Under the pieces are notes generated by a model. It was not told the DNA's origin, did no database searches, and was given only the letters and a program-made list of their open reading frames with translations. Of a DNA stretch of 42,390 nt, positions 2 through 22,012 are shown piece after piece. Source of the DNA: an uncultured Methanosarcinales archaeon (lineage in GTDB: Archaea; Nanobdellota; Nanobdellia; Woesearchaeales; WJKV01); the NCBI GenBank assembly GCA_964576505.1, contig CAZNVD010000004.1, forward strand, positions 29,225-71,614, in the 5' to 3' direction. Position numbers and translations under genes: made by a program. Numbering within the stretch: position 1 is the first letter of the stretch; each line of letters opens with the position of its first letter.

Positions 2-696
2 CTTCAATCTTGTGAGGGCGTGCTCCAGCGTTTTGTGTATCACTTGGAAAGAAAAGAGGGGTGGCATGTTCACATCAGCTTTGTTATTCTACTGATATTT
101 CAACTTTGTTTGGATGTGATCTGATTATTGAAGCGGTTATTGAGGACATGAATGTAAAGAAATCATTGTTTAAGAAACTTAAGAAACATAGCTTTAGAAA
201 TACCATAGTTGCAAGTAATACCAGTAGCTTGTCAATATCTAAACTTGCAGCTAGTTATCATAGTCCTAGCAAGTTTATCGGGATGCATTTCATGAATCCT
301 GCAGATAAGATTGCGCTTGTTGAAGTTATTCCTGGAAAGAGAACGAGTAAAGCAGTGGTTAATAGTGTTATGAAGTTTCTTGAAAAAACTGGAAAGAAGC
401 CCGTGCTTGTTAAGGATGTACCCGGGTTTGCGGTAAATAGATTAGTAATTCCTATAATTAATCGGGCTTGTTTACTGGTTGAGCAGAAAGCTGCTACAGT
501 TGAAGATATAGATTTAATTATGAAGAATCTCGGGTTTCCAATGGGACCTTTTGAGCTTGCAGATTTAATTGGAATTGATGTTGTTGTGGCAATTCTCCGA
601 AATATAGGGGAAAAACCTTCAAAGCTGCTTTTGCATAAAATAAAGAAAAAACATATTGGAATGAAAAGCAAACAAGGGTTTTACAAAAGAAAGTAA
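2..696 (+). CDS. 3-hydroxyacyl-CoA dehydrogenase family protein (5'-partial; probable frameshift near 58-61)
   Basis: Family motifs DLIIEAVIED, ASNTSSLSI, GMHFMNPA, LVEVI, KDVPGF.VNR and PMGPFELADLIGIDV in ORF 61..696. Frame 1 has a TGA at 13-15, while frame 2 (LQSCEGVLQRFVYHLERKEG) is open and could be the missing upstream helix. Confidence 0.85.
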
Positions 697-3687: not shown

Positions 3688-3700
3688 AGAAATAATTTCG

Positions 3701-5140: not shown

Positions 5141-5151
5141 ATTGTATTTAA

Positions 5152-6936: not shown

Positions 6937-6994
6937 AGCATGACTTTAATTATGGAGGTTTATAAATCTTATTGAAGGAAGAATCAGATCTCTT

Positions 6995-7222
6995 TTAGTC
7001 TTTAAAAATAGAAGGATAGCCTTTTCTGTTCTTAATATTATATAATTGAGCTATTTTTTCTGGGCCACCAGGCTGGTTGACAAGTTTTTTGATTGTTTCG
7101 TTTGCCTTATCAAATATAGCATTGATAAATGCAGTATGGTGCTTTTTCCAGTCTGGATTTGTTAGCACGTAATTTGCCCAGCGTTCAATCTGTTCTTTAC
7201 GAGAATCTCTTACTAACGGCAT
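6995..7222 (-). CDS. Small hypothetical protein coupled to a nucleotidyltransferase (possible TA partner)
   Basis: 75-aa ATG ORF overlapping the stop of the upstream NTase gene by 10 bp. Confidence 0.6.
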   Translation of the reverse strand: MPLVRDSRKEQIERWANYVLTNPDWKKHHTAFINAIFDKANETIKKLVNQPGGPEKIAQLYNIKNRKGYPSIFKD

Positions 7223-7770
7223 TTTTTAATCATCTCCTTGATTCTATTTATTTCACCCTCATCGATTTCATCCTTAAATATTGTTCGTAAATGGTGAGCA
7301 TCATCTAGGTCTTTTGGTGACTTTAAATACTCTTCCTTGAAAGCTATGTTCATCTCAATTGAGCTGAACCATACATCTAAATCAGTTAAGGGAATTTTCT
7401 TCCTTGTTTGTAATTGGTAATTGTCTAATACATCTTTAGCAAATTTCAATTCCATTTCAGGTAATGGGGTTTCTTTACTTGTATATCTAACTGAAACGTT
7501 TTTGTCTAAGTAATCATGATAGATAATTTGTGGATTGTCTGATTGCATACATATAAAACCATGTTTTATGAGATCGTTGTGAAGATCTGAAAACTTCTGC
7601 TCAGTCAGGCGCTCTACAATTACATCAATATCTTCTGTTCCTCGTGTCCTTCCTGAAGCAATAGCAACGAAGCCTGAGACAACTATGTATTTTCCATGCT
7701 TCTCTAAAATATTGCAAAATGTTTCACAGAATTTGTCTAACACATTGCGGTCATCAACAGAACGGTTCAT
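7213..7770 (-). CDS. Pol-beta-superfamily nucleotidyltransferase (AbiEii/DUF6036-like)
   Basis: VVSGFVAIASGRTRGTEDIDVIV (G...R.T.D.D motif) and C-terminal K...PKDLDD; ATG at 7770 has a TATA-like box upstream. Confidence 0.75.
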   Translation of the reverse strand: MNRSVDDRNVLDKFCETFCNILEKHGKYIVVSGFVAIASGRTRGTEDIDVIVERLTEQKFSDLHNDLIKHGFICMQSDNPQIIYHDYLDKNVSVRYTSKETPLPEMELKFAKDVLDNYQLQTRKKIPLTDLDVWFSSIEMNIAFKEEYLKSPKDLDDAHHLRTIFKDEIDEGEINRIKEMIKKCR

Positions 7771-7867
7771 GTAATCTTTTATGCATTTATAATATAAAAG
7801 GGTTGTGGCTGCATATGGCTTGTGAGGCATAGTAAGGTATTAAAGGAAATGGTGTTTGCCTCATAAT

Positions 7868-8980
7868 ATGAGCCTTTCGGAATCTATTGCATATTATGAA
7901 CATCATTATTTAAGAGAAAGAATGCATAGATGGCTGAAACCAAGGCAACTTGTAAAGGCACAATCTGCTGGGCGACATATAATGCAATACCTGCTTTCTA
8001 AAGAAGATTTAGGTGTACAGGTAATTCAATTTCCTAAAAGAAAAATTGTAAATGGAATTGAATTCAGGAGTCCTGTGGGAATTGCAGCTGGTTATGATAA
8101 AGTTGGAAAGCTTGTTGATATTTCCTATAATCAAGGGGCTGGGTATATGATTGTGGGATCGTTGACTGCTAAGAAACGAGATGGTAATGTGATTGAAGGA
8201 ATAAGGCATCCTTGTTTGTTGCTTCCCGATGGAAGTGCTGTTAATTGTTTAGGGTTGCCGAATCCCGGTTATGAAGGAGTCAAGGTAGAGTCAAAATATA
8301 AAGCATTTCCTGTTGGAATAAGTTTATCTGAGGATAATCAAATTTCTGATGATGCGGAACGGGTGAGGGCTTTGCTTACAGGGTTTGATGTTTTTGTTGC
8401 TCAAGCTGCATTTTTTGAACTTAATCTGTCGTGTCCGAATACAGGAGAGAAGATTCAAGATAGTGCGCAATTCTATTATGTTGTTGATACTGTAGGGGAC
8501 AAGCTTAGACAGTTGCGTAGTGTTGAAGATAAAAATATAGTGTGCTATGCTAAATTTTCTGTTGATACACCACTTGAGAAATTGGAGGAGATTATTCCTT
8601 TTCTTTATGATAAAGGCTTTTCTGGGATTAATCTAGGGAATACTTCTACTAAAGATTTGAAATACAAAGTGCTTGATAAAGATAAGGAGGCTTATTTGTG
8701 GTTTAAAGATAAAATTGGAGGAGGGGTGAGTGGGCCTTTGATTCATCATCTTGCTTTTAATGCATGCAAAACTGCACGGGATGTTATTGATGATTTTGGT
8801 TTGGGTGGTCAGTTTACACTGATTGGAACGGGAGGAATTACACATGCTGCTGATGTGAATAAATTCTTGTATGAGGCAGGGTGCGATCTTGTTCAACGGT
8901 TATCCGGACACTGGGATGGGTTTAGCAGGAGTGGTCATCTCTTGTATCAGCACTTGTATAGTTCTTTAGGATGGATTTAG
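7868..8980 (+). CDS. pyrD: Dihydroorotate dehydrogenase
   Basis: SPVGIAAGYDK, NCLGLPNPG, ELNLSCPN, GNT, GGVSG, IGTGGI and AGCDLVQ FMN-barrel motifs. Confidence 0.88.
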   Translation: MSLSESIAYYEHHYLRERMHRWLKPRQLVKAQSAGRHIMQYLLSKEDLGVQVIQFPKRKIVNGIEFRSPVGIAAGYDKVGKLVDISYNQGAGYMIVGSLTAKKRDGNVIEGIRHPCLLLPDGSAVNCLGLPNPGYEGVKVESKYKAFPVGISLSEDNQISDDAERVRALLTGFDVFVAQAAFFELNLSCPNTGEKIQDSAQFYYVVDTVGDKLRQLRSVEDKNIVCYAKFSVDTPLEKLEEIIPFLYDKGFSGINLGNTSTKDLKYKVLDKDKEAYLWFKDKIGGGVSGPLIHHLAFNACKTARDVIDDFGLGGQFTLIGTGGITHAADVNKFLYEAGCDLVQRLSGHWDGFSRSGHLLYQHLYSSLGWI

Positions 8981-8990
8981 AATGGGTCTA
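8978..8990. promoter_or_regulatory. Degenerate copy of the TRGAMT-N-RGTCYA palindrome
   Basis: TAGAAT-G-GGTCTA; centre 53 bp before ATG 9037 and 24 bp before ATTATAAA. Confidence 0.5.
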
Positions 8991-9036
8991 AAAATTCTAT
9001 GAAAAAGATTATAAATAAATAAAGAATAATAAGAAG

Positions 9037-9264
9037 ATGGTTGAATCTAAGTTAAAGCTATCAGTGGCAGAATTCTGGAAGGAATTTGATAATACTGTGA
9101 AAAATGGGAAACATAAAGAAATGAGCTTGAAGGAACTTGAAGCTCACATAGAAAGTATAAGAGGTTCAGTCAAGACAAAAACTACTGAAGAAGAATATGA
9201 AAGGGCACGAACTGAAGCATTTGAAGAGTTATATGGAGAATTATGTGACAAGAATTCAAAGTAA
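9037..9264 (+). CDS. Small charged hypothetical protein (antitoxin-like)
   Basis: 75 aa, ATG with TATA about 25 bp upstream; ends in ERARTEAFEELY; converges on the PIN gene. Confidence 0.6.
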   Translation: MVESKLKLSVAEFWKEFDNTVKNGKHKEMSLKELEAHIESIRGSVKTKTTEEEYERARTEAFEELYGELCDKNSK

Positions 9265-9687
9265 ATCTTCTGGTTTATGATAATTTGTAATGTCGAGTAA
9301 TTTCTTGAAATCATTGTCTCTTGTGACGAGAATAAGATTGTTATCTCTCGACAATATTGCGTGGAGTGCGTCGCCAATAGGAATTTTTCTTGTTATACTC
9401 AAGTGCGATGCTTCTTGTAGCTGTCCTCTGCCTGGAAATACTTTTAATATCTGATGTTTCAATGGATTAAGCATACTATTGATTGTATGATCAGCAACTC
9501 TTCTCCGTAATTCCTCTAATACAATATCAGACATAACTAAATTCTCTTTATTTGTAAGTATCTTCAAAACCAGCATTGAGGCATATTTTCCTAGAGGTTC
9601 ATCATGATATCCTTTCCTATCTTCGATGAGATCAATCCAGATAGAAGTATCAAAATAGTATTTATCAGTCACTATGGGTAAGGTCAA
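9256..9687 (-). CDS. PIN-domain (VapC-like) ribonuclease toxin
   Basis: YYFDTSIWID, VLEEL, GDALHA and LVTRDNDF PIN motifs; TTG start uncertain. Confidence 0.88.
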   Translation of the reverse strand: MTLPIVTDKYYFDTSIWIDLIEDRKGYHDEPLGKYASMLVLKILTNKENLVMSDIVLEELRRRVADHTINSMLNPLKHQILKVFPGRGQLQEASHLSITRKIPIGDALHAILSRDNNLILVTRDNDFKKLLDITNYHKPEDLL

Positions 9688-9718
9688 ATAGAGAATAAAA
9701 GATTAGCTGTGTTAAAAA

Positions 9719-9731
9719 TGGACTCAGTCCA
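9719..9731. promoter_or_regulatory. Palindrome TGGACT-C-AGTCCA upstream of BRE/TATA
   Basis: Perfect palindrome; TTTATAAA at 9748-9755; ATG at 9778. Confidence 0.75.
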
Positions 9732-9777
9732 AGTCTATTAGAAAATATTTATAAATGATGAGTGATACAATAGGAAC

Positions 9778-10073
9778 ATGACTGAACTGCTATTAACATG
9801 TATTATTAAAAATTAGACTGGCTTCTAAGACTTCAAACTTTTAGTGTGGTAATCACAATCAAGTCTAATTTTTAATCTGCGCAATCGCCCAAATGACAAG
9901 TCAATTGGCGATTGCGCATTATTAAGAAGGAACTCAGAGGAGGATATTCTTCGTTGTGTCCTGAGCTTGATATTGCAAGTAGAGGAGATTCTATTGAAGA
10001 AGCAAAAGAACACCTTAAGGAAGCTGTTGCTGGTCATCTCAAGGTAGCACAGGAAGAAGGAATGTTTATTTAG
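9778..10073 (+). pseudogene. hicB: HicB-family antitoxin interrupted by a 116-bp insertion
   Basis: MTELLLTC (9778-9801) joins IIKKELRGGYSSLCPELDIASRGDSIEEAKEHLKEAV... (9918-10073) to give a 59-aa HicB-fold protein. Confidence 0.85.
9802..9925. mobile_element. Double-hairpin insertion (family B copy 1) flanked by ATTATTAA direct repeats
   Basis: ATTATTAA at 9802-9809 and 9918-9925; stems ATTAAAAATTAGACT/AGTCTAATTTTTAAT and TGCGCAATCGCC/GGCGATTGCGCA. Confidence 0.75.
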
Positions 10074-10089
10074 TTGACATTTAGATAAG

Positions 10090-10515
10090 CTAAGAATCTT
10101 TCAACAACAAAAGAATTTTTCTTGTTGTAACAACAGGAATGCCTTGAAATTCTTTCAAAGTTAACAAATCTGCATCCCCACTTACAATGTAATCTGCCTT
10201 TGCACTTTCAGCACACTCTAGGAATTTGTTGTCATTTACATCTCTACAAATGTTTATCTTTATTGTTGGAGTTATAATTATGTGAGATAATGAAATTATT
10301 TTTTGCATAATTTGTGCTGGTGTTAATCCAGCATTTTTCATAACTTGATTGAACTTTGGTCTGTTAATTACGTCTTCCAACTCAGAAAGAATTTCTTTAG
10401 TAAGATAACATGTTGCCTTACCTTGTTCAATGCATTTAAGGAGTTCGGATTCATTTCCTCTCCAAAAGAAAGCTGAAATTATTGTGCTTGTATCCAGAAC
10501 TAATTTAATGGGCAT
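10090..10515 (-). CDS. PIN-family toxin (PIN_3/TIGR00305-like)
   Basis: LVLDTSTIISA, CRDVNDNKFLECA, ADYIVSGDADLL; coupled to the AbrB gene; alternative start 10524. Confidence 0.9.
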   Translation of the reverse strand: MPIKLVLDTSTIISAFFWRGNESELLKCIEQGKATCYLTKEILSELEDVINRPKFNQVMKNAGLTPAQIMQKIISLSHIIITPTIKINICRDVNDNKFLECAESAKADYIVSGDADLLTLKEFQGIPVVTTRKILLLLKDS

Positions 10516-10768
10516 TTCGTACATCCTTAATTGCCTTTATTAAGTCTGCCTTTGTCAATCCAGCCTGCTCTGCTGCTTTTTGTAATGGCTTTGCTATTTC
10601 GTCGAATGTTTTTTTAATTGCTGACTTATCAATTTTCTTTAAAATTACAGTTCCATCTTCGCCAAATATCATAAATTGATCTGACTTCTTAATTCCCATC
10701 TCTTTACGTAAAGGGGAGGGGATGACAATTTGTCCTTTTTCTGATATCTTAGTTAGTTCAACTTGCAT
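10505..10768 (-). CDS. AbrB/MazE/SpoVT-family antitoxin
   Basis: TKISEKGQIVIPSPLRKEMGI swapped-hairpin motif. Confidence 0.9.
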   Translation of the reverse strand: MQVELTKISEKGQIVIPSPLRKEMGIKKSDQFMIFGEDGTVILKKIDKSAIKKTFDEIAKPLQKAAEQAGLTKADLIKAIKDVRNAH

Positions 10769-10781
10769 AGTATTTCACCTT

Positions 10782-10806
10782 GTAAGATATGTAAAGCATA
10801 TCTTAC
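10782..10806. promoter_or_regulatory. Inverted-repeat operator of the AbrB-PIN operon
   Basis: GTAAGATATG-taaag-CATATCTTAC between TATA and start codon. Confidence 0.6.
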
Positions 10807-10925
10807 TTATATATTTAACTCATTTTAACTAGAACATCGAATAGAACATAGAATGTACCGAAGAAAGAATAGAAGTGGCCTTATTTCTTATTAGAAAATA
10901 TTTATATAGATAGACGGCTTAGAAT

Positions 10926-13676
10926 ATGGCTATGGGGAACAGTGGGGAAGAGACAGATAAGCCCAGCTTATCAAATAAACCAGCAGAGACTGTTGATTTG
11001 AGTGCAGCTAAGAAAGAAGAAGATTCTAAGATAGATACAGCTATTCCTTCTATTGATTTATCTGGAACACAAGGTGGAGAGTTAAGTGAGATTCCTTCTA
11101 TATCTTTACCTGGTCAAGATCCTCAGGCTACTGTTAGTATAGGGACACGAGAGAGTGGAGTAGGTACACGAGAAAGTAGAGCTGAAGATTCTGATAGAAC
11201 AATTAATACTGGAACGAGGGAGAAGGCTAAGTTGTATCCTAAGAAAGAAGGTAGTCCAGGTGCTACAGTAAGTGAAAGTGATGTAGAGAAGCTGGATCCT
11301 GAGAGAACATTTGATACGGGATTGAGGAGGAAATCACAGGTTTATCCAGGTGTAAGTAGAGATGGTCCAGATGTTACAGTAAGTGAAGGTGGTATTCCTA
11401 ATATTACATTAAGTGTTGCTGATGAATTATCTAATATTACTTCTATACATGCACCTGATGGACAGGAAATAATTAATGAATTAAGGCGAGTGTTTGGAGA
11501 TGGGAGGACTAGAGAATTTCTTGCTTCAGTAGGAAGTCCAGTGGCTCAAAGTACTAAACCGCTTGATTCACTTGAAGATAAAGTTAAAGGCAAATCAGGA
11601 AAAGATTCTGAATCTCAGGATTATAAAATTCCTCTTTTGCCTATAAATCATATTACTCCTGTTTATGGACTTGCTGCTATTGATGCTGAGGGAAGAATTG
11701 TTACTAAAGAAACAGGGGCGCCTGTATTTGAAAGGGAATTGAAACTGGATGAAGAATCGCAGTATGTTGGAAAGGATTATCGGGCGTTGCAGTACATAAT
11801 TGGGCAGGGCGGAATGGGGAGAATGCTGAAATATAGAGATAATACTGGTGAAGATTTAGTTGTTAAAGTTATTCTGAATAGAGGAGGAAGGAGTGCGGCT
11901 GTTGATAAATTCATTTATGAAGGTATAATTCAAAATCAGTTGAAGCATCCTAATATTGTGCCAGTTCATCTTGGGTTAGTAGAATATGAAGGGTCATGGA
12001 ATCCTGCGATTGCTATGAAGTTTGTGAAAGGAAAGACACTAGGAGATATACTTCATGAGCGGAATAAAAGGTGGGCGAAAGGTGAGAGTGAAGGGGAGTA
12101 TAGTTTGCATAGTCTGCTTGATATGTTTAAGAAAGTATGTCAAGGTGTTGCGTTTGCACATAGTAAAAAGATTATTCATAGGGATTTGAAGCCTGCCAAT
12201 ATTATGGTTGGAGAGTTTGGTGAAGTTCTTGTAATAGACTGGGGGATGGCTAAGCACATGGATGGTGCTGAAGCTACTACGGTTGATGAATCTGGTGAAC
12301 ACAGGGTGATTCAAGCTGGATCTACAAGTGTAAGTATTGACAGGACTATTGAGGGGAGCGTGATGGGGACACCTGCTTATATGTCGCCTGAGCAAGCTCT
12401 TGGTAAAGTTGATGAGTTAGATGAACGATCAGATGTATGGGCATTAGGCTGTATATTGTATGAGATTCTTACTGGTAAAAGAGTTATTGAGTATGATAGT
12501 AGTGATCCTCTCTTTGTTATTCTTGGTAGAGTAGCTTCAGATGATTATGTTATTGGGAAGCCAAGTGAAGTAAAACAAGGTGTAAGTAAGGAGTTAAGTG
12601 AATTGTGTATGTTAGCTTTGGTAAGAGATAAGAGGAAGAGGCTGAATAAATCAACCGTTTTTGTGGAATGCATAGATAGCCATGTTGCAAACAAAGGAAT
12701 TCAAATACAAAAATGTTTGGCGGAAGCTCAAGGCGATTCTTGGAATACATTGGATAGTATTGAGATGTTCGATAATACAATTAAGTCTTATGAGATTGCA
12801 CTTGATGGATTGCTGACAGATACCACAGGCTCTGGCGACCCGAGAATACTTTATTTGAAGGGTTATTTGGCAGAATTGTATCTGAAACGCGGTGAACGCG
12901 CCATGACATCTGGCGATGGAAAGAAAATAAGAGAAAGTTATGAGAGGGCCAAGACCATTAATGATCTGACAGAAGAAATACAAACCAAACTACAATGCCG
13001 AATTGATCGATTAACAGGAGTATGTGAACAAATTGAGGGTAACTTTGATAATGCAATAAGATACTACAAAAAAGCATTAGAAGGCGCAAAGGAATTAGAT
13101 GATCTTCAAATAATTGGTGGACTCCTTGAAATGATAGTAGATGTTAAAATAAAGCAATTTGACCGACAAAAAGGAGAAAAGGATTTTACTTTATTGAATG
13201 GAGGGGAGGGGGCACTTAAATATGCTATTGAACTGAAAGAAAAGTTAGGTGATTTAAATTCAAAAGTATTGTTTAGACTGGGTCATATTTACGATTTTCT
13301 TCAGCAAAAAGATGCAGCTTTTCAACATTATGACAATGCAATAAAAGCTGCTGAAGCGAACGAAGAGTGGCCGATCTTACTACGAACATGTTGGATGAAA
13401 GGATATTTGGCTTTGAGGGAAGATATGTATGACGAGGCAGAACAAGCATATCTAAAGGCATATCGATATTCAGAGTTTATCCAAAGCAAGCTATCAATGG
13501 CAAATAGTGCTCTTTTACTCGCAGATGTGCACTTTACGACTGGCAATGTGGAGGAAGGTATACAATTTGTAAGAAAAGCAATCGACATTGATAAGAACCT
13601 TGATGTTGCATTATCATATATGCCAAGGATAGAACAATTGTGCCAAGAGCACAATGTTAAACTACCACCACTTTAA
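10926..13676 (+). CDS. Hanks-type Ser/Thr protein kinase with long disordered N-terminus and C-terminal TPR-like repeats
   Basis: GQGGMG, VVK, HPNIVPV, HRDLKPANIMV, DWGMAK, GTPAYMSPEQA, SDVWALGCILYEILTG; helical repeats such as AIRYYKKAL and AFQHYDNAI; no obvious TM segment. Confidence 0.93.
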   Translation: MAMGNSGEETDKPSLSNKPAETVDLSAAKKEEDSKIDTAIPSIDLSGTQGGELSEIPSISLPGQDPQATVSIGTRESGVGTRESRAEDSDRTINTGTREKAKLYPKKEGSPGATVSESDVEKLDPERTFDTGLRRKSQVYPGVSRDGPDVTVSEGGIPNITLSVADELSNITSIHAPDGQEIINELRRVFGDGRTREFLASVGSPVAQSTKPLDSLEDKVKGKSGKDSESQDYKIPLLPINHITPVYGLAAIDAEGRIVTKETGAPVFERELKLDEESQYVGKDYRALQYIIGQGGMGRMLKYRDNTGEDLVVKVILNRGGRSAAVDKFIYEGIIQNQLKHPNIVPVHLGLVEYEGSWNPAIAMKFVKGKTLGDILHERNKRWAKGESEGEYSLHSLLDMFKKVCQGVAFAHSKKIIHRDLKPANIMVGEFGEVLVIDWGMAKHMDGAEATTVDESGEHRVIQAGSTSVSIDRTIEGSVMGTPAYMSPEQALGKVDELDERSDVWALGCILYEILTGKRVIEYDSSDPLFVILGRVASDDYVIGKPSEVKQGVSKELSELCMLALVRDKRKRLNKSTVFVECIDSHVANKGIQIQKCLAEAQGDSWNTLDSIEMFDNTIKSYEIALDGLLTDTTGSGDPRILYLKGYLAELYLKRGERAMTSGDGKKIRESYERAKTINDLTEEIQTKLQCRIDRLTGVCEQIEGNFDNAIRYYKKALEGAKELDDLQIIGGLLEMIVDVKIKQFDRQKGEKDFTLLNGGEGALKYAIELKEKLGDLNSKVLFRLGHIYDFLQQKDAAFQHYDNAIKAAEANEEWPILLRTCWMKGYLALREDMYDEAEQAYLKAYRYSEFIQSKLSMANSALLLADVHFTTGNVEEGIQFVRKAIDIDKNLDVALSYMPRIEQLCQEHNVKLPPL

Positions 13677-13780
13677 CTATACATTCTCCATGAAAAATGA
13701 ATTATGTACTTAACTAGTCAAATGTCAAAAGTAGAAAGAATTATGAAAATAAATAAAAAAAGTAATTTGTTCTGGGAAGT

Positions 13781-14824
13781 TTAACCATTACAATTCGCTG
13801 TTGCTTGAACATCAAAGTTACCACCGTTTGGACTAAATTTAGCACAGAATGGATTACTAGCTGTATCTAAACCACAAATACAAGTGTCGCCTCCAGACAA
13901 GCTAACATCTAGGGTGTCACTTGTTCCTTCTCTAAATTTCCACTGATAATCTCCAGCAGCAATCTGTCTTGCCACTATTTCTCCCAAAATTGTGCCACCA
14001 GTAGCAGTTGCACGAAGTCCGACTAAATCGTTGTTTGATAATGTACCAGTATGTTCAATGTCTAAGCTTCTCTTAGTGTCAGCGTCCGCAGAAATAACAA
14101 CAGAAGCTGTGGCGGCAGTCACACCAGTTAACGCGGAGGATGCACCAGACCCAAGAAATACATTCCTTAAATTAGTATCATCATCATTTGATACAATAAC
14201 CGAAACCGTATCATCATTGTCTAATAAATTTAAAGTCCTAACATTACCAGTCGTTAATCCAAATGTAAAGGAACCAATAATGCTTTCTCCAACTGAATTG
14301 GTAATAGTATAAAAATCCCGACCAGTAAGCGTAGCAGCTTGCACACCAGTGGTCGTTAGCTTTTTATAAATATGGCGATAAGTCCCACTTGTTGCAGAAC
14401 CCGCATCCCTAACATTAGTAAATGAAGGATCTGTAGTTGTTGCCGAATCACCATTAATAGTTATCACACCAGTATCCCGCACAACATCAAAGTGAGACAC
14501 TGAGCCCTTACAAACAGCAAATTCTTTAGTACTTGCTTGAGTAGCCGGATTAGTACAACCAATAATAACAGCAGTTTGACCTGCTGCTAATGTGTAAATG
14601 TGAGTACTGTTCGTACCAACTGTCAAATTTCCTTTAATCGATACGTTCTTTGGAAAGATATAAGTTGCGTTTCTAAAAGATCCACCACGAACTTGAGTTG
14701 CATCGTGACCTGGGTTTGGTGTGTCACCCGGAGAAGCTATAACAAATATTGTGATTGCAAGCATAAACAACATTAAAGCAACTAAGAACGTACGACGATT
14801 AGATAGATCCAGTGTAAATCGCAT
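13781..14824 (-). CDS. Secreted/membrane-anchored Thr/Gly-rich beta-structured surface protein (PNPGH motif)
   Basis: N-terminal hydrophobic helix then SPGDTPNPGHDATQV; GAGGT RBS and TTATAAA upstream. Confidence 0.75.
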   Translation of the reverse strand: MRFTLDLSNRRTFLVALMLFMLAITIFVIASPGDTPNPGHDATQVRGGSFRNATYIFPKNVSIKGNLTVGTNSTHIYTLAAGQTAVIIGCTNPATQASTKEFAVCKGSVSHFDVVRDTGVITINGDSATTTDPSFTNVRDAGSATSGTYRHIYKKLTTTGVQAATLTGRDFYTITNSVGESIIGSFTFGLTTGNVRTLNLLDNDDTVSVIVSNDDDTNLRNVFLGSGASSALTGVTAATASVVISADADTKRSLDIEHTGTLSNNDLVGLRATATGGTILGEIVARQIAAGDYQWKFREGTSDTLDVSLSGGDTCICGLDTASNPFCAKFSPNGGNFDVQATANCNG

Positions 14825-15012
14825 AATAATTACCTCTTTTTTTTCTTGACTTCAGAATGTGAAGAACATTTTATAAGTATTTCGTTAGCAGAGTGTGGAG
14901 GATAATCGAATTAAATTATAAAATTAGCAAGATTTGATTTTATTTTTATCACTGGACTCAGTCCAAATTCTCGAGGACAAAGCATATAAAAACTAAAATT
15001 ACCAGAATGTAC
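14660..15012. repeat. Repeat unit R1 (5' end of surface-protein gene + divergent promoter + palindrome)
   Basis: The 47-bp block 14831-14877 is identical to 16123-16169 and has 4 mismatches to 17687-17733. Block 14955-14999 is near-identical to 16247-16291. Confidence 0.85.
14953..14965. promoter_or_regulatory. Palindrome TGGACT-C-AGTCCA
   Basis: Centre 24 bp before CATATAAA and 54 bp before ATG 15013. Confidence 0.75.
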
Positions 15013-15852
15013 ATGGACAAAAATAAAGCTCTCATAGTATTCCAAGACAAGAAGATAAGAAGAACATGGCATAATGAACAATGGTTTTTCTCTGTTGTTG
15101 ATATTGTTGAAATTCTCACAGATAGCCCAAATCCGAGAAGATATTGGTCAGACCTGAAAATAAAATTAATGAGCGAAGGATTTGAGTTGTACGATAAAAT
15201 CGTACAACTGAAATTAATGGCTTCTGATGGTAAGAACTATGAAACTGATTGCGCTTCTACTGAGAATATATTCAGGTTCATTCAATCTATCCCATCTCCA
15301 AAAGCAGAACCGTTCAAGAGATGGCTTGCTAAAGTTGGTTATGAACGTGTTCAAGAGATAGAAAATCCCGAGTTAGCTCAAGAACGAATGAAACAACTTT
15401 ACGAACAAAAAGGATATTCTAAACCATGGATTGATACCAGACTGCGAGGAATTGCAGTCAGACAGGATTTAACTGAAGAATGGATGAAAAGAGGAATAGA
15501 AAGTAACAATGATTTTGCGATTCTTACTTCAGAGATAGCTAAAGCTACTTTTGGGATGACTCCTACAGAATATAAAGAATTCAAAGGCCTAAAAAATCAG
15601 AATCTTAGAGATCACATGACTGATCTTGAACTCATATTTACCATGTTGGGTGAGGCGTCAACAGCTGAGCTTGAAAGAGTGAAAGATCCAAAAACATTCC
15701 CAGAACATCAAGAAGTAGCTCAAGATGGAGGAAATGTAGCAAAAACAGCCAAACTTGATCTTGAAAGCAAAACTAAAAGAAAAGTTGTTACAGATCAAAA
15801 TTATATAGATGAGCCAGAGAAAGAAAAAAGAAAGAGATTACAATCAAAATGA
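15013..15852 (+). CDS. Bro-N domain (phage antirepressor-like) protein
   Basis: IRRTWHNEQWFFSVVDIV, YWSDLK, IQSIPSPKAEPFKRWLA, NLRDHMTDLELIF; alternative start 15007. Confidence 0.9.
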   Translation: MDKNKALIVFQDKKIRRTWHNEQWFFSVVDIVEILTDSPNPRRYWSDLKIKLMSEGFELYDKIVQLKLMASDGKNYETDCASTENIFRFIQSIPSPKAEPFKRWLAKVGYERVQEIENPELAQERMKQLYEQKGYSKPWIDTRLRGIAVRQDLTEEWMKRGIESNNDFAILTSEIAKATFGMTPTEYKEFKGLKNQNLRDHMTDLELIFTMLGEASTAELERVKDPKTFPEHQEVAQDGGNVAKTAKLDLESKTKRKVVTDQNYIDEPEKEKRKRLQSK

Positions 15853-16031
15853 AGCAACCAAAAGCTTCAATAGCCATTAGGCCCTTGAACTGTTTCTAAA
15901 AGTACCAATAAGGACCCTGAGTTGCACAGTGACTTAAGATATCATCCGAAGAAGCAATAACAAATATTGTAATGTAAGCATGAAAAACATTAAAGCAACT
16001 AGAAATAAACGAAGATTGTAAATCGCATAAT

Positions 16032-16122
16032 CAATATATCAAAAAATGTCAATGTTGGAAATGAGCGAATTTTTTGATTATGAGAAAACAATCCAGGCAG
16101 AAATAAAGGTTATTGTTTTCTC
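16032..16122. mobile_element. Double-hairpin insertion in R2, absent from R1 and R3
   Basis: About 88 extra bp between ATG and RBS; stems ATCAAAAAAT/ATTTTTTGAT and GAGAAAACAAT/ATTGTTTTCTC. Confidence 0.6.
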
Positions 16123-16244
16123 TACCTCTTTTTTTTCTTGACTTCAGAATGTGAAGAACATTTTATAAGCATTTTGGTGGTAGATTATGTAGTTGAGTGT
16201 AAAATATACCAAGAAATATTCTATTACAATTTTCAGAACATAAT

Positions 16245-16257
16245 TAGACTGAGTCCA
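16245..16257. promoter_or_regulatory. Palindrome TAGACT-G-AGTCCA
   Basis: Centre 24 bp before AATATAAA and 55 bp before ATG 16306. Confidence 0.75.
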
Positions 16258-16305
16258 AATTCGCGAGGACAAAGAATATAAAAACTAAAATCATCAGATA
16301 AATAT

Positions 16306-17154
16306 ATGGACACGGAGAAAATCATAAAACTCAAAAAAACGTTTGAAGAATATGCTCGCGAGGCAGAAGGAGTGGAATTTTGGTTTGCGAGAGATTTAAT
16401 GAAACTTTTAGGATATGACAAATGGGAGAATTTTCTTAATGTAATCGAAAATGCGAAAATTGCGTGCACAAATTCAGGTTACGATGTAAATGACCATTTT
16501 CCCGAGGTCAGGAAAATGGTCGAAATTGGCTCCGGAGCAAAAAGAGAAATAGAAGACATAATGCTTACGAGGTATGCCAGTTATCTTATTGCACAAAATG
16601 GTGATCCACGAAAAGAAGAAATCGCTTTTGCTCAAAGTTACTTCGCCATTCAAACAAGAAAACAAGAATTAATAGAACAAAGAATTTCATTGCAGGAAAG
16701 ATTACAGGCCAGACATAAGTTAATGGCTGCGGAATCTGAGCTTTCAAAACTCATATATGAACGAGGAGTTGATAATAATGGATTTGCAAGAATAAGAAGC
16801 AGCGGAGACAAGGTACTATTTGGAGGACACACCACTGCCCGAATGAAGACCAAACTTGGAGTTCCCTCAAATAGACCTCTTGCCGATTTTCTTCCCACTA
16901 TAACAATAACTGCAAAAAATTTTGCCACAGAAATTACTAATTTCAATGTCAAGAAAAATAATCTTGAAAAAGAAGATAACATAACGAAGGAGCACATTCT
17001 AAATAATGCAGATGTAAGAGACTTGTTGATAAAACGAGGAATAAAACCTGAAGAACTACCTCCTGAGGAAGATATTAAAAGTATCGAGCAATCAATAAAG
17101 AAAGACGAATACAATATTGCTGCCAGTTCAAAGCACAAGAAAAAATTAAAATGA
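16306..17154 (+). CDS. dinD: DNA damage-inducible protein D family
   Basis: EFWFARDL..LLGY..WENF, LTRYASYLIAQNGDPRKEEIAFAQSYFAIQTRKQE, RPLADFLPT, GIKPEELPPEEDIK. Confidence 0.92.
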   Translation: MDTEKIIKLKKTFEEYAREAEGVEFWFARDLMKLLGYDKWENFLNVIENAKIACTNSGYDVNDHFPEVRKMVEIGSGAKREIEDIMLTRYASYLIAQNGDPRKEEIAFAQSYFAIQTRKQELIEQRISLQERLQARHKLMAAESELSKLIYERGVDNNGFARIRSSGDKVLFGGHTTARMKTKLGVPSNRPLADFLPTITITAKNFATEITNFNVKKNNLEKEDNITKEHILNNADVRDLLIKRGIKPEELPPEEDIKSIEQSIKKDEYNIAASSKHKKKLK

Positions 17155-17170
17155 TCAAAAACCTGAAGAA

Positions 17171-17440
17171 CTACTTAACGCCTAGTTTCTTTGCAATCTC
17201 TCGTACGGCCTGCTCCCTTACTTCATGAATCTGCTCATCAGTAATTTTCCTATCCTTCTTTGATCCTGCGCCATATGCATGCTCTAAGCGAAATAATGCC
17301 TCCTGTGTTTCCAAATCCTTCATTTTTTCTCTAATAGCTTCTCGAATAAATTCGGCTTTAGTAGAATACCGATGCTCTTTCATGATCTTTTCCATATCAT
17401 GAATGAAAGAGTCTTCAAATCTAACTGATATTGTTTCCAT
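17171..17440 (-). CDS. Ribbon-helix-helix (CopG/Arc/MetJ) protein, orphan antitoxin-like
   Basis: METISVRFE...YSTKAEFIREAIREK. Confidence 0.85.
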   Translation of the reverse strand: METISVRFEDSFIHDMEKIMKEHRYSTKAEFIREAIREKMKDLETQEALFRLEHAYGAGSKKDRKITDEQIHEVREQAVREIAKKLGVK

Positions 17441-17508
17441 TGTATTACTTTGTAAGACTTTGTGCTATTTAAATTTTTCTGTAAAATACACTATAAAGAT
17501 AATAATCA

Positions 17509-17868
17509 AGAGCAAAAAAAGCTTCAACAGATAGATCCATGAATTATTTCTAAAAGTACCAATAAGAACCTGAGTTCAGAGTGACTTAAGATATCATCCG
17601 AAGAAGCTAACAAATATTGTAACGTAAGCATGAAAAACATTAAAGCAATAAGAAATCATTGAAGATTGTAAATCGCACGGGCGATTTACCTCTTTTTTTT
17701 CTTGGTTTCAGAATGTTGAGAACATTTTATAAGATTTATGATAGTAGATTATGCACATAACAAAAAAATATTTCATAAAATTATTTTTTTGCAATCTTAA
17801 GAAGATTATTGGAATGAGTCCAATAATAGAGGAGATAAACATATTAAAGATAAAATGCCTTAGTAATT
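17509..17868. repeat. Repeat unit R3 with a second degraded 5' fragment of the surface-protein gene
   Basis: Close to R2 (TTTCTAAAAGTACCAATAAG, GTGACTTAAGATATCATCCGAAGAAGC, GTAAGCATGAAAAACATTAAAGCAA). Confidence 0.85.
17810..17822. promoter_or_regulatory. Palindrome TGGAAT-G-AGTCCA (extended ATTATTGGA...TCCAATAAT)
   Basis: Centre 24 bp before CATATTAAA and 53 bp before ATG 17869. Confidence 0.72.
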
Positions 17869-18201
17869 ATGATCTTTTATGTCACGAAAGCTTTACCGTT
17901 TGATAAACTAAGTAACAAATATTCAATTTCTGAAAAGAGAATTAAAAAACTGAGAAACAAATTACAAATTAATCCTTTTGTGGGAGACCTACTTCAAACA
18001 CCAATACTGAGAGAAAAACGCTTTGATGGAAAAAGAGTATATTTTCTTGTCTTTGCTGATGAAAAAGTCGTTATTCTTGTCGCAATAAGCAATAAAAAAG
18101 CTCAGCAAGAAACTATTGATAACATCATCAGCATGATTCCACAATATAAACAAACTGCAATAAATATTCGTGTTAAATTAGAACGTACTAGTCAAAAGTA
18201 G
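17869..18201 (+). CDS. RelE/ParE-like toxin
   Basis: Basic 110-aa protein with L..NPFVGD.L...LREKRFDGKRVYFLV....VVILVAIS pattern. Confidence 0.7.
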   Translation: MIFYVTKALPFDKLSNKYSISEKRIKKLRNKLQINPFVGDLLQTPILREKRFDGKRVYFLVFADEKVVILVAISNKKAQQETIDNIISMIPQYKQTAINIRVKLERTSQK

Positions 18202-18421
18202 TACTTCTGCCTTCTTGCAATTCAACCAATGTTTCCTTGAATGCATTAAGAATTTCCTCTTGTGAAGCATCTTTAGATTCCTTAACCTTTTTTTGTTTGC
18301 TGCGAAATACAGTAACTCTGCCTGCTTTAATATCTTCAAGAGACTGTTCGAATTGCTCGACAAGCTCCATATTAACACCATTCTTTGGATTCTTTTTCTT
18401 TTCTAAGACGGTTTGTGCCAT
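18188..18421 (-). CDS. Small antitoxin-like protein with a duplicated motif
   Basis: ELVEQFEQSLEDIKAGRVTVF and EILNAFKETLVELQEGRSTTF; own TATA and palindrome upstream. Confidence 0.7.
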   Translation of the reverse strand: MAQTVLEKKKNPKNGVNMELVEQFEQSLEDIKAGRVTVFRSKQKKVKESKDASQEEILNAFKETLVELQEGRSTTFD

Positions 18422-18468
18422 AAAGTAGTGGGTAATTTCAGTATTTATTAATCTTATTGCGGATTTCT

Positions 18469-18481
18469 TGGACTTAGTCCA
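18469..18481. promoter_or_regulatory. Palindrome TGGACT-T-AGTCCA
   Basis: Centre 54 bp upstream of the minus-strand ATG at 18421. Confidence 0.75.
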
Positions 18482-18496
18482 TGATTAAGGAGAGAA

Positions 18497-19990
18497 TTAA
18501 CTATTAGATACAGAATAATTTCTTGCCAATAACATGTGAGTCTTGGAAGCATTGGTTTGATTTAATTTCTGAAGGACTACTGAGACCTGAGCATGCGTTT
18601 GGGCTCTCGTAAAATTATCTGCAGGTAATTTCAAGGCCTGGGCTAAATATACCAGGGAATCTTCTGTTTTATTTAGCTGGAAGACAACAGATCCCAAATT
18701 ATGCCAGAGCAATGATGAGTCTTTGCCAAAGTATTTGGCAGCTTCTATATATGTTGCTTCTGCCTGAGTCCAGTTCTTCTGATCTGAATAGTATTTTCCA
18801 AGGTATAACCAGGTTTCATATGATTGGGGATTCTTTTGAAGTGAAGATTGCCAAAGTAAAGCATTGTCTAAATACAAGGCATTTGTATATAATGTCTGAA
18901 TACCAAAGAATACAGAAATAATAAGCAGGAAGATTACACTTAATGGAACAAGATATTTCTTTTTTCCAGCAACAAATTCAATTTCTGGCAATTTCTGCAA
19001 TAAATATGCAATAATGGTACTCAAAAAGAGAGATGGGATATAGAGCATTGTATCAGATAAAAGAGGACCAAGGGAAAGGAATGATGGTATAGAAATGATT
19101 AAAAGCATTGAAAGAAGGAAGAAGCCAATTGATTTTGATTTTCTCAATACGAAAACTGAAAGGAGGAATAAGATAACTAATGCAACAGCTGTAATAATTG
19201 CAGAAAAAGAGATTGCTGTTGGAACAGTAACAGTGTAATCAGGATTCAATGTCCAAGGCATTATGTAATGGAATAATGATAAGATAATGAGTTTTGATCT
19301 AACAACAAGATATAGACCAAATTGTGTTATGAGAATCTGCTTGAATAAGGCGGCTTGTTTTACTATTACAACTAGTAATGTAATTATGAAGGCTGAAGTC
19401 CAGAAAATTATTGTAGTAATGTATTTATGCGATTTGCTAACATATTTCTCATACAAAAGAATTGTCAAAGGTAATGCAAATGTTAAAGGATGGAGAGCGA
19501 AGGCTGCGAAATATAATGCAATTGATCCAAGTAATGTGTAGGGAATATATCTTACTTTTAATGAACCTTGTTTCAAGTACAAGAGCAAGGATAAAAGAAG
19601 GCAAAAGGTGGCTAAAAGCAAGGACGTGCCTGTTGGAACTGGAAGCACTGATGAAACTAAAGGATGAAGCATGAATAATAAAGAGGAAGCGACTGAGACA
19701 AACAGATTTGAAGTAATAATTGTGAGAATGATGAATAATAAGATTGTGTTTATTGTATGAAGAATTGTGTTTGGGAAATGAGGAAGGATGATTTCTGATG
19801 AGCCTAACCAGTTTGAAGCAGTAATATTGTATTTTTCTACAGATGAAATTTGCGATGAAGGAATAATTGTTGAGTTAAAGACAATAGTTGGTGAGCCTAA
19901 TGAGAAAGATTGAAGATGGGATGAATAAGCCTGCATCAGAATACCTAGAACTATGAACAGAATAAGGTAATACCATTTATTTGATTGCAT
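18497..19990 (-). CDS. Multi-TM membrane protein with C-terminal TPR (TMTC-like GT-C glycosyltransferase, divergent)
   Basis: Many hydrophobic helices, LH..N, LLFMLHP, PWTLNPDY, LYIPS, LWQSSLQKNPQS followed by TPRs; ATG 19990 preferred over 20101. Confidence 0.75.
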   Translation of the reverse strand: MQSNKWYYLILFIVLGILMQAYSSHLQSFSLGSPTIVFNSTIIPSSQISSVEKYNITASNWLGSSEIILPHFPNTILHTINTILLFIILTIITSNLFVSVASSLLFMLHPLVSSVLPVPTGTSLLLATFCLLLSLLLYLKQGSLKVRYIPYTLLGSIALYFAAFALHPLTFALPLTILLYEKYVSKSHKYITTIIFWTSAFIITLLVVIVKQAALFKQILITQFGLYLVVRSKLIILSLFHYIMPWTLNPDYTVTVPTAISFSAIITAVALVILFLLSVFVLRKSKSIGFFLLSMLLIISIPSFLSLGPLLSDTMLYIPSLFLSTIIAYLLQKLPEIEFVAGKKKYLVPLSVIFLLIISVFFGIQTLYTNALYLDNALLWQSSLQKNPQSYETWLYLGKYYSDQKNWTQAEATYIEAAKYFGKDSSLLWHNLGSVVFQLNKTEDSLVYLAQALKLPADNFTRAQTHAQVSVVLQKLNQTNASKTHMLLARNYSVSNS

Positions 19991-20048
19991 TGAATCTTTA
20001 CTGCAGGATTTTATATAAAAAAATATGTTTGTACTTGAGAAGGACAAA

Positions 20049-20061
20049 TAGACTAGGTCCA
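20049..20061. promoter_or_regulatory. Degenerate palindrome TAGACT-A-GGTCCA
   Basis: Centre 24 bp before CTTATTAA facing the AbrB-MazF operon; ATG spacing differs (95 bp). Confidence 0.45.
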
Positions 20062-20123
20062 AAAAAGGGAAGGCTAAACTTATTAAGAGTAAAAACCTCA
20101 CATAATAGAAAGAAAAGACATAT

Positions 20124-20143: not shown

Positions 20144-20149
20144 GTGTCT

Positions 20150-20407
20150 ATGACAATCACAATGGTTACAGTTTCGGAAAAAGGACAAATTGCAATACCT
20201 AATTCAATCAGAAGTAAAATTGGCATTAAAAAAGGAGATAAATTACTTTTAGTTCAAATAGATGATAAAATAATACTTGAGAAATCCAAACATATAGAAG
20301 ATAAGATGAAAGATAGCATGAAAGACATTTTATCATTAAGCGAAAAATCACTCAAGGAAGTTTGGGATAATGAAGAAGACGAGATTTGGAGCCAATATCT
20401 AAAATGA
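20150..20407 (+). CDS. AbrB/MazE/SpoVT-family antitoxin
   Basis: TVSEKGQIAIPNSIRSKIGIKKGDKL; C-terminal LSEKSLKEVWDNEEDEIW. Confidence 0.9.
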   Translation: MTITMVTVSEKGQIAIPNSIRSKIGIKKGDKLLLVQIDDKIILEKSKHIEDKMKDSMKDILSLSEKSLKEVWDNEEDEIWSQYLK

Positions 20408-20742
20408 ATGTCAAACAAAAAGAACTAGTTTTGCTGCGGTTTCCTTTTTCTAATTTGGAAGGAGGCAAAGTGAGACCTGCACTAGTTGTTTCAAATAACT
20501 TATTCAATAACAAATCTGATGATTGCATCATGATTCCACTTACAAGTGTGATTAAAGATGAACCATATTCAAGACTAATCAAACAAGAAGATTTGGAAAT
20601 CGGCAAATTACTCAAAACCAGCAGAGTGAGGACTGACAAAATATTCGCAGTTGAGAAAAATCTTATTGAAATGAAAATTGGAATATTACATAACGACTGT
20701 TTTAATAGCATTAGAAAACAAATATCCAGCATATTTGAATAA
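20404..20742 (+). CDS. PemK/MazF-family toxin
   Basis: LVLLRFPFSNLEGGKVRPALVVSN, PLTS, SRVRTDKI; ATGA overlap with the antitoxin. Confidence 0.92.
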   Translation: MNVKQKELVLLRFPFSNLEGGKVRPALVVSNNLFNNKSDDCIMIPLTSVIKDEPYSRLIKQEDLEIGKLLKTSRVRTDKIFAVEKNLIEMKIGILHNDCFNSIRKQISSIFE

Positions 20743-21802: not shown

Positions 21803-22012
21803 ATGGCAAGCGAAGTTGTTTTGAGGAAATGGGGAAATTCATTGGGAGTAGTTCTACCAAAAGAACTTGTTGAAAACAAAGGACTCCATGAAAAAGAAGT
21901 AATTTTAATCGAAGTTGTAAAGGAAGCTAACCTGAAGGATGTATTTGGAAGTCTTAAGAGAAAAATGTCAGGTCAGGAATTTAAGGATCTAGTTAAGCAA
22001 GGGTGGGAATGA
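21803..22012 (+). CDS. AbrB/MazE-family antitoxin
   Basis: LRKWGNSLGVVLPKE; preceded by direct repeat AGTATAACTA x2. Confidence 0.9.
   Translation: MASEVVLRKWGNSLGVVLPKELVENKGLHEKEVILIEVVKEANLKDVFGSLKRKMSGQEFKDLVKQGWE

Follow-up and report, generated by a model that had tools for sequence, protein, structure and literature searches.

The subject of this work is a 13-bp palindrome that recurs in a stretch of archaeal DNA of 42,390 nucleotides, analyzed at its full length and referred to as the window (C4:29225-71614), which belongs to the genome of a groundwater archaeon (G000; 1,312,496 bp, 81 contigs, 97% complete, with archaeal gene content). Judging from its sequence, its symmetry and its placement, the palindrome is probably the operator of one dimeric regulator, held at a fixed distance from the TATA box. 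It is over-represented, symmetrically conserved, and kept at a fixed position relative to the core promoter elements, as operators are. An operator-defined regulon is a known kind of system; what is new here is the host group, the mix of target genes, and the link to the copying of gene cassettes. We know of no DNA-damage or stress regulon of archaea outside Sulfolobales that is defined by a cis-element, and we know of almost nothing on gene regulation in small-genome (DPANN-like) archaea. A keyword search of the literature, with supplements unreadable, found no description of such an archaeal regulon, and searches by motif string, for this palindrome as well as for the second motif described below, returned only primer-type matches in unrelated papers.

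A reading of the window made from the letters alone (the sequence-only reading) had placed seven palindromes in it, three of them perfect, and a scan with its pattern, TRGAMTNRGTCYA, recovered every one of them. The scan gives 11 matches that correspond to 7 sites, because 4 sites are read on both strands, while 0.06 matches are expected from 100 dinucleotide shuffles and the largest single shuffle yields 1. The perfect form TGGACTNAGTCCA is present at 9719, 14953, and 18469. The sites are as follows.

8978..8990, plus strand: palindrome site 1, TAGAATGGGTCTA; TATA start at 9009; heads the 75-aa gene 9037-9264
9719..9731, no single strand: palindrome site 2, perfect and bidirectional; the plus-strand side has its TATA at 9749 and an ATG at 9778, and the minus-strand side faces the PIN gene
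14953..14965, plus strand: palindrome site 3, perfect; TATA at 14984; ATG at 15007 or 15013
16245..16257, plus strand: palindrome site 4; TATA at 16276; ATG at 16306
17810..17822, plus strand: palindrome site 5; TATA at 17841; ATG at 17869
18469..18481, minus strand: palindrome site 6, perfect; minus-strand TATA at ~18444-18451; ATG at 18421
20049..20061, plus strand: palindrome site 7, differing from the perfect form at two positions; TATA-like box at 20080; first start a GTG at 20144, at +89

A TATA-like box follows each of the seven centers, as had been reported, although the distance to the start of the box is 24-26 bp by our measure, instead of the 23-24 bp given before. The spacing of 53-55 bp between six of the centers and an ATG holds as well, with 53 bp to 9037, 53 to 9778, 48 or 54 to 15007 or 15013, 55 to 16306, 53 to 17869, and 54 to 18421 on the minus strand; the seventh, centered at 20055, is not locked to a start codon. 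The caution that three of the sites lie in duplicated units (R1-R3) was justified: these are true repeats, and therefore the sites centered at 14959, 16251, and 17816 share descent and are not independent.

On the scale of the genome, the symmetric pattern TRGAMTNAKTCYA occurs at 38 sites in 1.31 Mb, compared with 1-3 in five first-order Markov simulations; allowing one mismatch, the count rises to 81, against 52-71 in the simulations. A position weight matrix built from the promoter set described below gives 80 oriented matches above 17 bits (~40 sites), while three second-order Markov genomes give 0, 2, and 1. Thirty of the 38 perfect sites fall outside crude gene calls, and intergenic DNA makes up 9.0% of the genome. 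For these 38 sites, which were not selected on geometry, a TATA-like box lies at +23..27 in at least one orientation in 28 cases, compared with 11.9% of 4000 random intergenic positions and 5.3% of 3243 random genome positions. When an ATG or GTG opening a reading frame of at least 30 aa at +52..56 is demanded in addition to the box, 20 of the 38 qualify, against 2.0% and 0.5% of the same controls. The sites are thus neither at background frequency nor at random distances from start codons, which supports the operator reading that had been proposed from the window alone. Regarding the start codons, the start of the TATA box in 1200 genes peaks 31-27 nt before the ATG (counts of 47, 124, 131, 78, and 31), and therefore most mRNAs of this organism are probably leaderless; the lock on the ATG is then a consequence of the lock on the TATA box. 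In a few motif promoters the ATG lies at +64..68 with GGTGAT just before it, which agrees with a transcription start near +51.

The anatomy of the element was described from 41 oriented promoters at 40 sites, 30 of which are perfect and 10 of which carry one mismatch to the symmetric pattern. In this set, the 13 bp of the palindrome extend to a 15-bp inverted repeat of 7-1-7 layout, TTRGAMT-S-AKTCYAA, with the outer bases T(-7) and A(+7) present in 34 and 36 of the 41 promoters, respectively. The degeneracy is mirrored (R/Y at +/-5, M/K at +/-2, T-7/A+7) and both halves are conserved, which gives the element the look of a homodimer site. The promoter-proximal half is slightly nearer the consensus and is followed by an A/T-rich flank, and the TATA box, TTATAAA, is strongly conserved. 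In addition, 14 of the 41 promoters carry a third half-site, AKTCYAA, exactly at +31 and abutting the TATA box, when up to one mismatch is allowed, and 10 of these are perfect; 4 of the 14 come from a single paralogous family. The same position gives 19 such half-sites, none of them perfect, in 291 generic leaderless promoters. The distance from the third half-site to the proximal half is 30 bp, i.e., three helical turns, and auxiliary half-sites recur at no other offset in the motif promoters. The 10-nt spacer before the B recognition element (BRE) is no more alike between unrelated motif promoters than between generic ones (identity of 0.29 vs 0.30), with a G+C content of 0.47 compared with 0.35, so the fixed spacing would be kept by selection and not by recent descent. 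The features that motif promoters have in common are therefore functional blocks, and not traces of the common descent of whole promoters. In six cases a single central palindrome stands between divergent genes (C2:45829, C11:22874, C14:4264, C17:16770, C28:7331, and 9725 in the window).

In the mechanism that we propose, a homodimeric DNA-binding protein would occupy the palindrome and from this fixed position would influence the pre-initiation complex. The center lies 24-26 bp ahead of the TATA start, which, with the mRNAs probably mostly leaderless, would put it ~51 bp upstream of the transcription start and 53-55 bp upstream of the ATG. Archaeal activators usually sit where this element does, upstream of BRE and TATA at a strict spacing and without overlap, and within the operator reading the scales tip slightly toward activation as the direction of control. 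With the opposite sign, a repressor would clamp the TATA box, which would fit the half-site found at +31 in a third of the promoters and the strong TATA boxes. Either way, about 40 promoters would form one regulon that includes ~20 toxin-antitoxin (TA) modules of unrelated families, RadA, RadB, DinD, a Bro-N paralogue, a divergent YdjM/NUDIX pair, a PLD-type nuclease, and several small membrane proteins.

The genes headed by the sites were assigned with Pfam and NCBIfam, for which ~190 neighboring proteins were scanned. Genes of TA type stand behind 22 of the 41 promoters; they include MazE/AbrB with PIN, VapB with PIN, MazE with MazF, DUF4258 with DUF2283, a RelE-like PBECR2 nuclease with DUF2283, toxin-like reading frames followed by Zn-ribbon-AbrB proteins, and PIN151 genes convergent with 44-aa genes, along with the window pairs 75 aa/PIN and 110 aa/77 aa. 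The small partners that match no family are presumed TA genes from their pairing. Genes for recombination, repair, or damage-associated functions account for 6 of the 41 promoters, namely RadB (TIGR02237, 217 bits at a cut-off of 172), RadA (Rad51, 266 bits; site with one mismatch, ATG at +99), DinD (357 bits) and its Bro-N paralogue, a NUDIX gene divergent from a YdjM-family gene, and a PLDc_2 nuclease. Recombination genes had been suggested as targets worth listing, and radA and radB do carry the site, as do dinD, ydjM, and the NUDIX gene. Small membrane proteins follow at 5 promoters, and the remaining 8 precede a TctA transporter, a lamin-tail-domain protein, secreted proteins, or genes without an assigned function. 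One target without a family, a 92-aa protein (C13:12420; L012 3159-3437), has unnamed and mostly bacterial clusters as its nearest atlas neighbors.

Several of the TA-type targets are convergent pairs of a toxin-like gene and its partner, whose 3' ends overlap by 9-17 nt (window 17869-18421 and 9037-9687; L001 3555-4128, L003 3555-4128, and L020 2754-3327). Each gene of such a pair has its own copy of the same promoter, so that a toxin and its presumed antitoxin would each stand under the same regulated promoter, a layout that is unusual for type II systems, is seen in five pairs, and permits antisense interplay. Moreover, on C11 two motif copies lie 61 bp apart directly after a tRNA-Glu gene (L010 3394-3570), the second of them with a full promoter and no open reading frame (ORF), which could serve a non-coding transcript or be a decayed cassette.

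The palindrome was then compared across 40 genomes of the same family or order, and it should be mentioned that all counts across relatives (pattern, synteny, Bro-N, and CACTGGACA, the second motif) include the unpublished genomes G001, G002, G005, and G006. Per strand, the pattern occurs 0-7 times in the 40 relatives (reversed control 0-10), compared with 38 times in G000 (control 5). Two relatives stand out, G004 with 7 (control 0) and G003 with 4 (control 2), both with the A/T-richer form TRGAATNATTCYA, while in the remaining 38 the palindrome is at background. The claims of conservation across genera rest on these two genomes. G004 has a perfect site in the region that separates an RPA-like gene from radA, with two weaker copies ~20 bp apart ahead of it, and downstream of the palindrome come a CACTGGACA word, 15 nt, and the TATA box, i.e., the same two-element layout as at radA of G000. 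A further site in G004 stands 51 nt ahead of the ATG of a RelE-like gene of 104 aa whose product is 36% identical to that of window gene 17869. In G003, a site that agrees in flank and TATA spacing precedes a PIN gene 29% identical to a PIN-like target on C6. In the order-level relative G039, none of the 7 pattern matches has the promoter geometry. As a side observation, the same ~70-bp array of three TAGAAT-type sites ~20 bp apart occurs twice in G004 (L205 on C10, ~1430-1520; L212 on C53, ~1350-1430), once before radA and once 350 nt ahead of the gene for an Ogg glycosylase; a tRNA-like stretch that ARAGORN does not call lies in that 350-nt interval.

Public collections were searched with a composite pattern, GACTSAGTCYAAWWTN{12,15}TWTAWAW, which has 7 occurrences in G000; records of G000 itself may have been missing from these collections. 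In a set of 185,579 species with one genome apiece it matched 26 stretches, all single and from unrelated bacteria, and metagenome contigs gave at least 116 stretches, all single among the matches listed; a second relaxed site was found at 0 of the 142 loci examined among the public-collection matches listed. As judged from these counts, the palindrome is a family-level element with an expansion of at least five-fold in G000. Other genera of the family would accordingly have the regulator as well, together with a small regulon made up of radA, a RelE-like toxin, and a PIN toxin, and the regulon would have grown at least five-fold in G000, partly by the copying of cassettes whose ends coincide with palindromes.

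Besides the palindrome, a second motif, CACTGGACA, precedes the TATA box of replication and repair genes. It was met as (CAC)TGGACA, 12 nt before the TATA box at Bro-N promoters of three order-level relatives, and it is often tandem with a 9- or 7-bp period. In the 41 genomes it occurs 478 times against 114 for the reversed control (a table summed by hand), for example 31/1 in G009, 24/2 in G022, 18/1 in G039, and 8/1 in G000, and it lies 12-15 nt upstream of TATA boxes. In G000, the loci are C13:3500, C11:21676, C2:18505, C71:1649, C22:15863, and C17:20919, and the genes behind the motif include PolD DP2, radA, and the C-terminal half of a Hel308-like helicase. The loci in relatives come from G039, G033, and G015 (L183-L204), and the genes in G039 comprise Hef (helicase and ERCC4), two Bro-N genes, an RNase_H-fold exonuclease, and a LAGLIDADG endonuclease. 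The two motifs have a TGGAC core and some targets in common, and the R1 promoter of the window carries CACTGGAC at the start of its palindrome. The order-wide occurrence of CACTGGACA, with PolD, RadA, Hef, and Hel308 among the genes behind it, points independently toward a possible conserved regulon for replication and repair. Bro-N was considered as the regulator of this motif and rejected: it is present in 22 of the 41 genomes, CACTGGACA is enriched also in genomes that lack it (G023, G026, and G027), and the two do not correlate. Two details were noted at these loci. In G039, a conserved GGTGCGCGTGAG block sits between CACTGGACA and the TATA box, just before the latter, and at L185 (G000:C2:16600-18700) the Hel308-like ORF begins at its Helicase_C domain with the DEAD half missing from the frame, so that the gene may be split.

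Elements of this kind are known from several regulatory systems, and the comparison with each of them helps to place the palindrome. Its sequence and spacing are not known from any LexA box. E. coli recA, dinD, ydjM, and several toxin genes (dinQ, symE, tisAB) appear in a list of genes with known LexA boxes (PMC6590174), and the likeness to the LexA/SOS system is that one palindromic operator stands before a recombinase gene (recA there; radA and radB here), dinD, ydjM, and toxin genes. The differences are an archaeal host, a genome in which no LexA-like protein was found, and a site centered 24-26 bp upstream of TATA, with no overlap with the core promoter. The parallel makes a damage or stress trigger plausible and is not evidence of such a trigger; the role of the regulon in stress or DNA damage is suggested by the names of its genes.

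In Deinococcus, the radiation and desiccation response uses an operator independent of LexA, the radiation/desiccation response motif (RDRM), a palindrome before repair genes that is bound by the DdrO repressor and controlled through the IrrE protease; G000 differs from it in having no M78/IrrE match and only aMBF1 as an XRE-type helix-turn-helix (HTH) protein. Closer in kind are the archaeal upstream activating sites, such as that of GvpE at divergent gas-vesicle promoters and those of Ptr2 and TFB-RF1, and the sites from which SurR and TrmBL1 activate upstream of BRE/TATA. They share with the palindrome a dimer site just upstream of BRE/TATA at a fixed spacing and the service of two divergent promoters by one element, and they differ from it in motif sequence, in the size and content of the regulon, and in that the palindrome has an extra half-site past TATA. 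MqsA of E. coli is an antitoxin that acts as a global regulator, its TA-promoter palindrome being reused at other stress promoters; here, more than five unrelated antitoxin families have the same site, so no single antitoxin is indicated. Finally, the box of Thermus thermophilus FadR, a TetR-family regulator, is the 15-bp 5'-TTRNACYNRGTNYAA-3' (PMC5597230), and the G000 consensus TTRGAMTSAKTCYAA fits it when M=C and K=G, the commoner variants. This fit shows only that HTH homodimers bind such 7-1-7 sites; the G000 targets are unrelated to fatty-acid metabolism and no TetR_N domain was found in the genome.

Several results weigh against the palindrome being the operator of one regulator, among them those of the search for that regulator in G000. 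No LexA was found in this 97% complete genome: PF00717 (Peptidase_S24) has two matches, the best of 30.5 bits and the other below cut-off, and the best one is signal peptidase I by NCBIfam (92.8 bits). The M78/IrrE peptidase profile (PF06114) has zero matches, the sole HTH_3 (PF01381) protein is aMBF1, no TetR_N (PF00440) protein is present, and neither is a protein of the FUR family, which binds 7-1-7 boxes (PF01475, a profile that matched 14/14 control genomes). Regarding the promoters, the radA site carries one mismatch, and lies 99 nt before the ATG, with a second promoter of CACTGGACA type in between; many TA modules of the genome have no motif (e.g., 10090-10768 and 21803-22377 in the window); and the radB promoters of 6 family relatives (G001-G006) are of leaderless type and lack the palindrome, from which it follows that at least part of the regulon is lineage-specific. 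The set of 41 promoters was picked on its geometry, i.e., on a TATA-like box following the site, and so describes that geometry without proving it, and paralogy inflates the counts (PIN151/44-aa cassettes three to four times, R1-R3, and two membrane-protein pairs). To these must be added cassette copies that end exactly at palindromes, which an operator alone does not predict and which are taken up below.

The two regulator candidates proposed from the window, a winged HTH protein at 21390-21710 and an Lrp at 33825, have no motif at their own promoters and no NCBIfam family. The damage and defense regulators PafBC, DriD, BrxR, and CapW combine HTH, WYL, and WCX domains, and the WYL family has a sole member in G000, a 181-aa protein on the 3.4-kb contig C61 (L031, C61:225-3239) in which no HTH is recognizable. 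It adjoins a helix-rich protein of 213 aa; neither of the two has an NCBIfam family, and no strong motif site lies nearby. The WYL family had no match in four archaeal control genomes.

The cassette copies bear on the first of the alternatives, in which the palindrome is primarily a recombination site and promoter-bearing cassettes cross over at or beside it, the promoter geometry traveling along. This had been offered as the second explanation in the sequence-only reading, and we consider it unlikely. The typical cassette would be a convergent toxin/antitoxin pair with an inward promoter at each end, and, once circularized, it would have a single palindrome with divergent promoters on either side. 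The PIN151/44-aa cassettes at C1:29862-30543 and C1:71891-72572 align over 697 bp with 76.5% identity, and the alignment runs from 8 nt before the left center to 7 nt after the right center. Third codon positions are 62% identical, while the 50-nt flanks are 23-25% identical, with alignment scores not above those of shuffles, and a partial copy at C33:5733 stops at the same outer edge, which makes a third boundary. Five convergent pairs of differing gene content are framed by two inward motif promoters (8984/9725 and 17816/18475 in the window, twice on C1, and on C33), and divergent pairs with one palindrome exist, as such circles would have. Promoters are also duplicated in tandem with a 61-bp period (C28:4312/4373 and C11:32513/32574), the C11 pair lies beside tRNA-Glu, a split motif occurs inside the insert of the HicB-like gene described below, and a copy number of 38 in G000 vs 0-7 in 40 relatives would be natural for a mobile site.

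Set against this are observations that recombination at the palindrome leaves unexplained, above all the conservation of the site before the core gene radA in another genus and the lack of common descent in the spacers of unrelated promoters, so that what stands of this proposal is one cassette family bounded exactly by palindromes, the only source of the boundary evidence. The homology of R1-R3 runs through the palindrome and breaks at the start codon instead, R2 and R3 having the same promoter up to the ATG and different genes behind it. No recombinase linked to the sites was found among the ~190 neighboring proteins. A 7-1-7 site with a single central base also falls short of the length that tyrosine recombinases have in their core sites, and its odd center misfits the 2-bp stagger of serine recombinases. 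Integron cassettes, whose attC sites measure 55-140 bp, are likewise small, rich in TA modules, and bounded by an imperfect or perfect palindrome, and differ in that the present loci have no array and no integrase, their own promoters, and a 15-bp palindrome at the 5' ends. In contigs from 4 groundwater DNA runs of one study, at a depth of ~3-6, no joints were found at palindromes, although contigs hide rare variants; loose ends recur at 9013, 10730, 15185/15215, 20121, and 21757, and they may come from paralogues or other organisms. With respect to the synteny of cassette insertion, the neighbors of L15e are not conserved within +/-1.5 kb in 6 family relatives. On the alignments, recombination around the motif modules is real, yet it is not always at the palindrome.

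A second alternative, which we regard as decidedly unlikely, is a propagated mobile promoter of ~60 bp, from the outer edge of the palindrome to the start site, with no dedicated regulator and with a passive or structural palindrome. Promoter reuse apart from genes, as putative mobile promoters, has been described for prokaryotes (PMC3575422), where similar modules precede non-homologous genes and some are duplicated as units. The tandem duplications with a 61-bp period and the promoter that R2 and R3 place before different genes are of this kind. In contrast to such modules, most G000 copies have only functional elements in common and not their spacers: beyond the palindrome, its flank, the TATA box, and the third half-site, unrelated motif promoters are as alike as generic ones (0.29 vs 0.30). 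The mirrored degeneracy, together with a site that drifts between genera while its place is kept, indicates selection for the binding of a symmetric protein. That the palindrome is instead a hairpin, either a terminator of the upstream gene (AWTTT comes next) or a cruciform, is very improbable in spite of the A/T-rich run with T's after the inverted repeat and of some sites at co-directional 3' ends (C11:23641 and C12:18809), because a repeat with one central base could fold into no more than a 5-6 bp stem around a 3-nt loop, six sites are found between divergent genes, where there is nothing to terminate, and the distance is fixed to the TATA box and variable to upstream stop codons.

We therefore return to the operator of a dimeric regulator as the preferred reading. 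Taken to its full extent, it would describe a LexA-independent SOS-like circuit in a groundwater archaeon, in which one dimeric regulator governs ~20 TA modules, RadA, RadB, DinD, YdjM, and NUDIX, the operator doubles as a joint for cassette copying at which the regulon grows, and the whole sits atop an older, order-wide CACTGGACA element; this combined picture is doubtful, and we put it forward tentatively. A defined operator with ~40 targets makes the coordination of recombination genes and TA modules experimentally addressable, and the cassette copies that end at operators suggest a route by which a regulon may expand.

The genes and repeat units around the seven sites of the window are the following.

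9037..9264, plus strand: 75-aa gene without a family; convergent with the PIN gene, with a 9-nt overlap; presumed antitoxin-like partner
9256..9687, minus strand: PIN-domain toxin gene (PIN, 48 bits); likely start a GTG 53 nt from center 9725, giving 9256-9672
9778..10073, plus strand: HicB-like gene with a 116-nt structured insert (~9810-9925)
14724..15006, no strand: repeat unit R1, the 5' end and promoter of a 347-aa gene on the minus strand (13781-14824), followed by site 3 and the promoter of Bro-N
15007..15852, plus strand: Bro-N domain protein, 281 aa (Bro-N, 40 bits)
15878..16298, no strand: repeat unit R2, a broken 5' fragment of the 347-aa gene family and its promoter, then site 4 and its promoter
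16306..17154, plus strand: DinD (DNA-damage-inducible protein D) with an N-terminal Bro-N (NCBIfam equivalog, 357 bits, cut-off 242)
17171..17440, minus strand: ribbon-helix-helix protein, 89 aa; convergent with dinD; without a motif of its own
17532..17781, no strand: repeat unit R3, ~90% identity to R2 across the gene fragment and promoter
17869..18201, plus strand: 110-aa toxin-like gene; no family match
18188..18421, minus strand: 77-aa gene, presumed antitoxin; own motif promoter; convergent with 17869-18201, with a 14-nt overlap; no family match
20144..20742, plus strand: MazE/AbrB antitoxin (20144-20407) and PemK/MazF toxin (20386-20742)

Of the gene names proposed before any database search, three agree with these assignments, namely Bro-N at 15007, dinD at 16306, and MazE with PemK/MazF at 20144-20742. 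The names RelE-like for 17869 and antitoxin-like for 18421 find no family match, though the former is 36% identical to the toxin-like gene that follows a site in a relative. The name hicB for 9778 does not describe an intact gene, since the ORF that begins there is open for 12 codons only, and a HicB-like C-terminus lies in another frame beyond the 116-nt insert; the segment 9912-10073 matches no Pfam family at E<=0.001. The ribbon-helix-helix protein at 17171-17440 has 33% identity to one that is convergent with the PIN-like gene on contig C6.

Regarding the insert in the HicB-like gene, it folds strongly (-39.6 kcal/mol) and is flanked by an 8-nt direct repeat, ATTATTAA, at 9802 and 9918, and its removal leaves a continuous frame of 59 codons. 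It holds both half-sites of the motif 42 nt apart (TTAGACT-42 nt-AGTCTAA), and four words of 11-18 nt tested from it occur nowhere else in the genome. The segment may represent either an insertion or some intron-like element. The 347-aa gene (13781-14824, minus strand) has no family match and appears to be secreted or pilin-like; its first ~100 nt, with promoter and Shine-Dalgarno sequence, are present in two further copies (15878-16100 and 17532-17690), which are the gene starts contained in R2 and R3, ~90% identical to each other and broken by frameshifts. Also inside the cluster of motif sites are a 916-aa Ser/Thr kinase with TPR repeats (10926-13676) and a 534-aa TPR protein (18497-20101).

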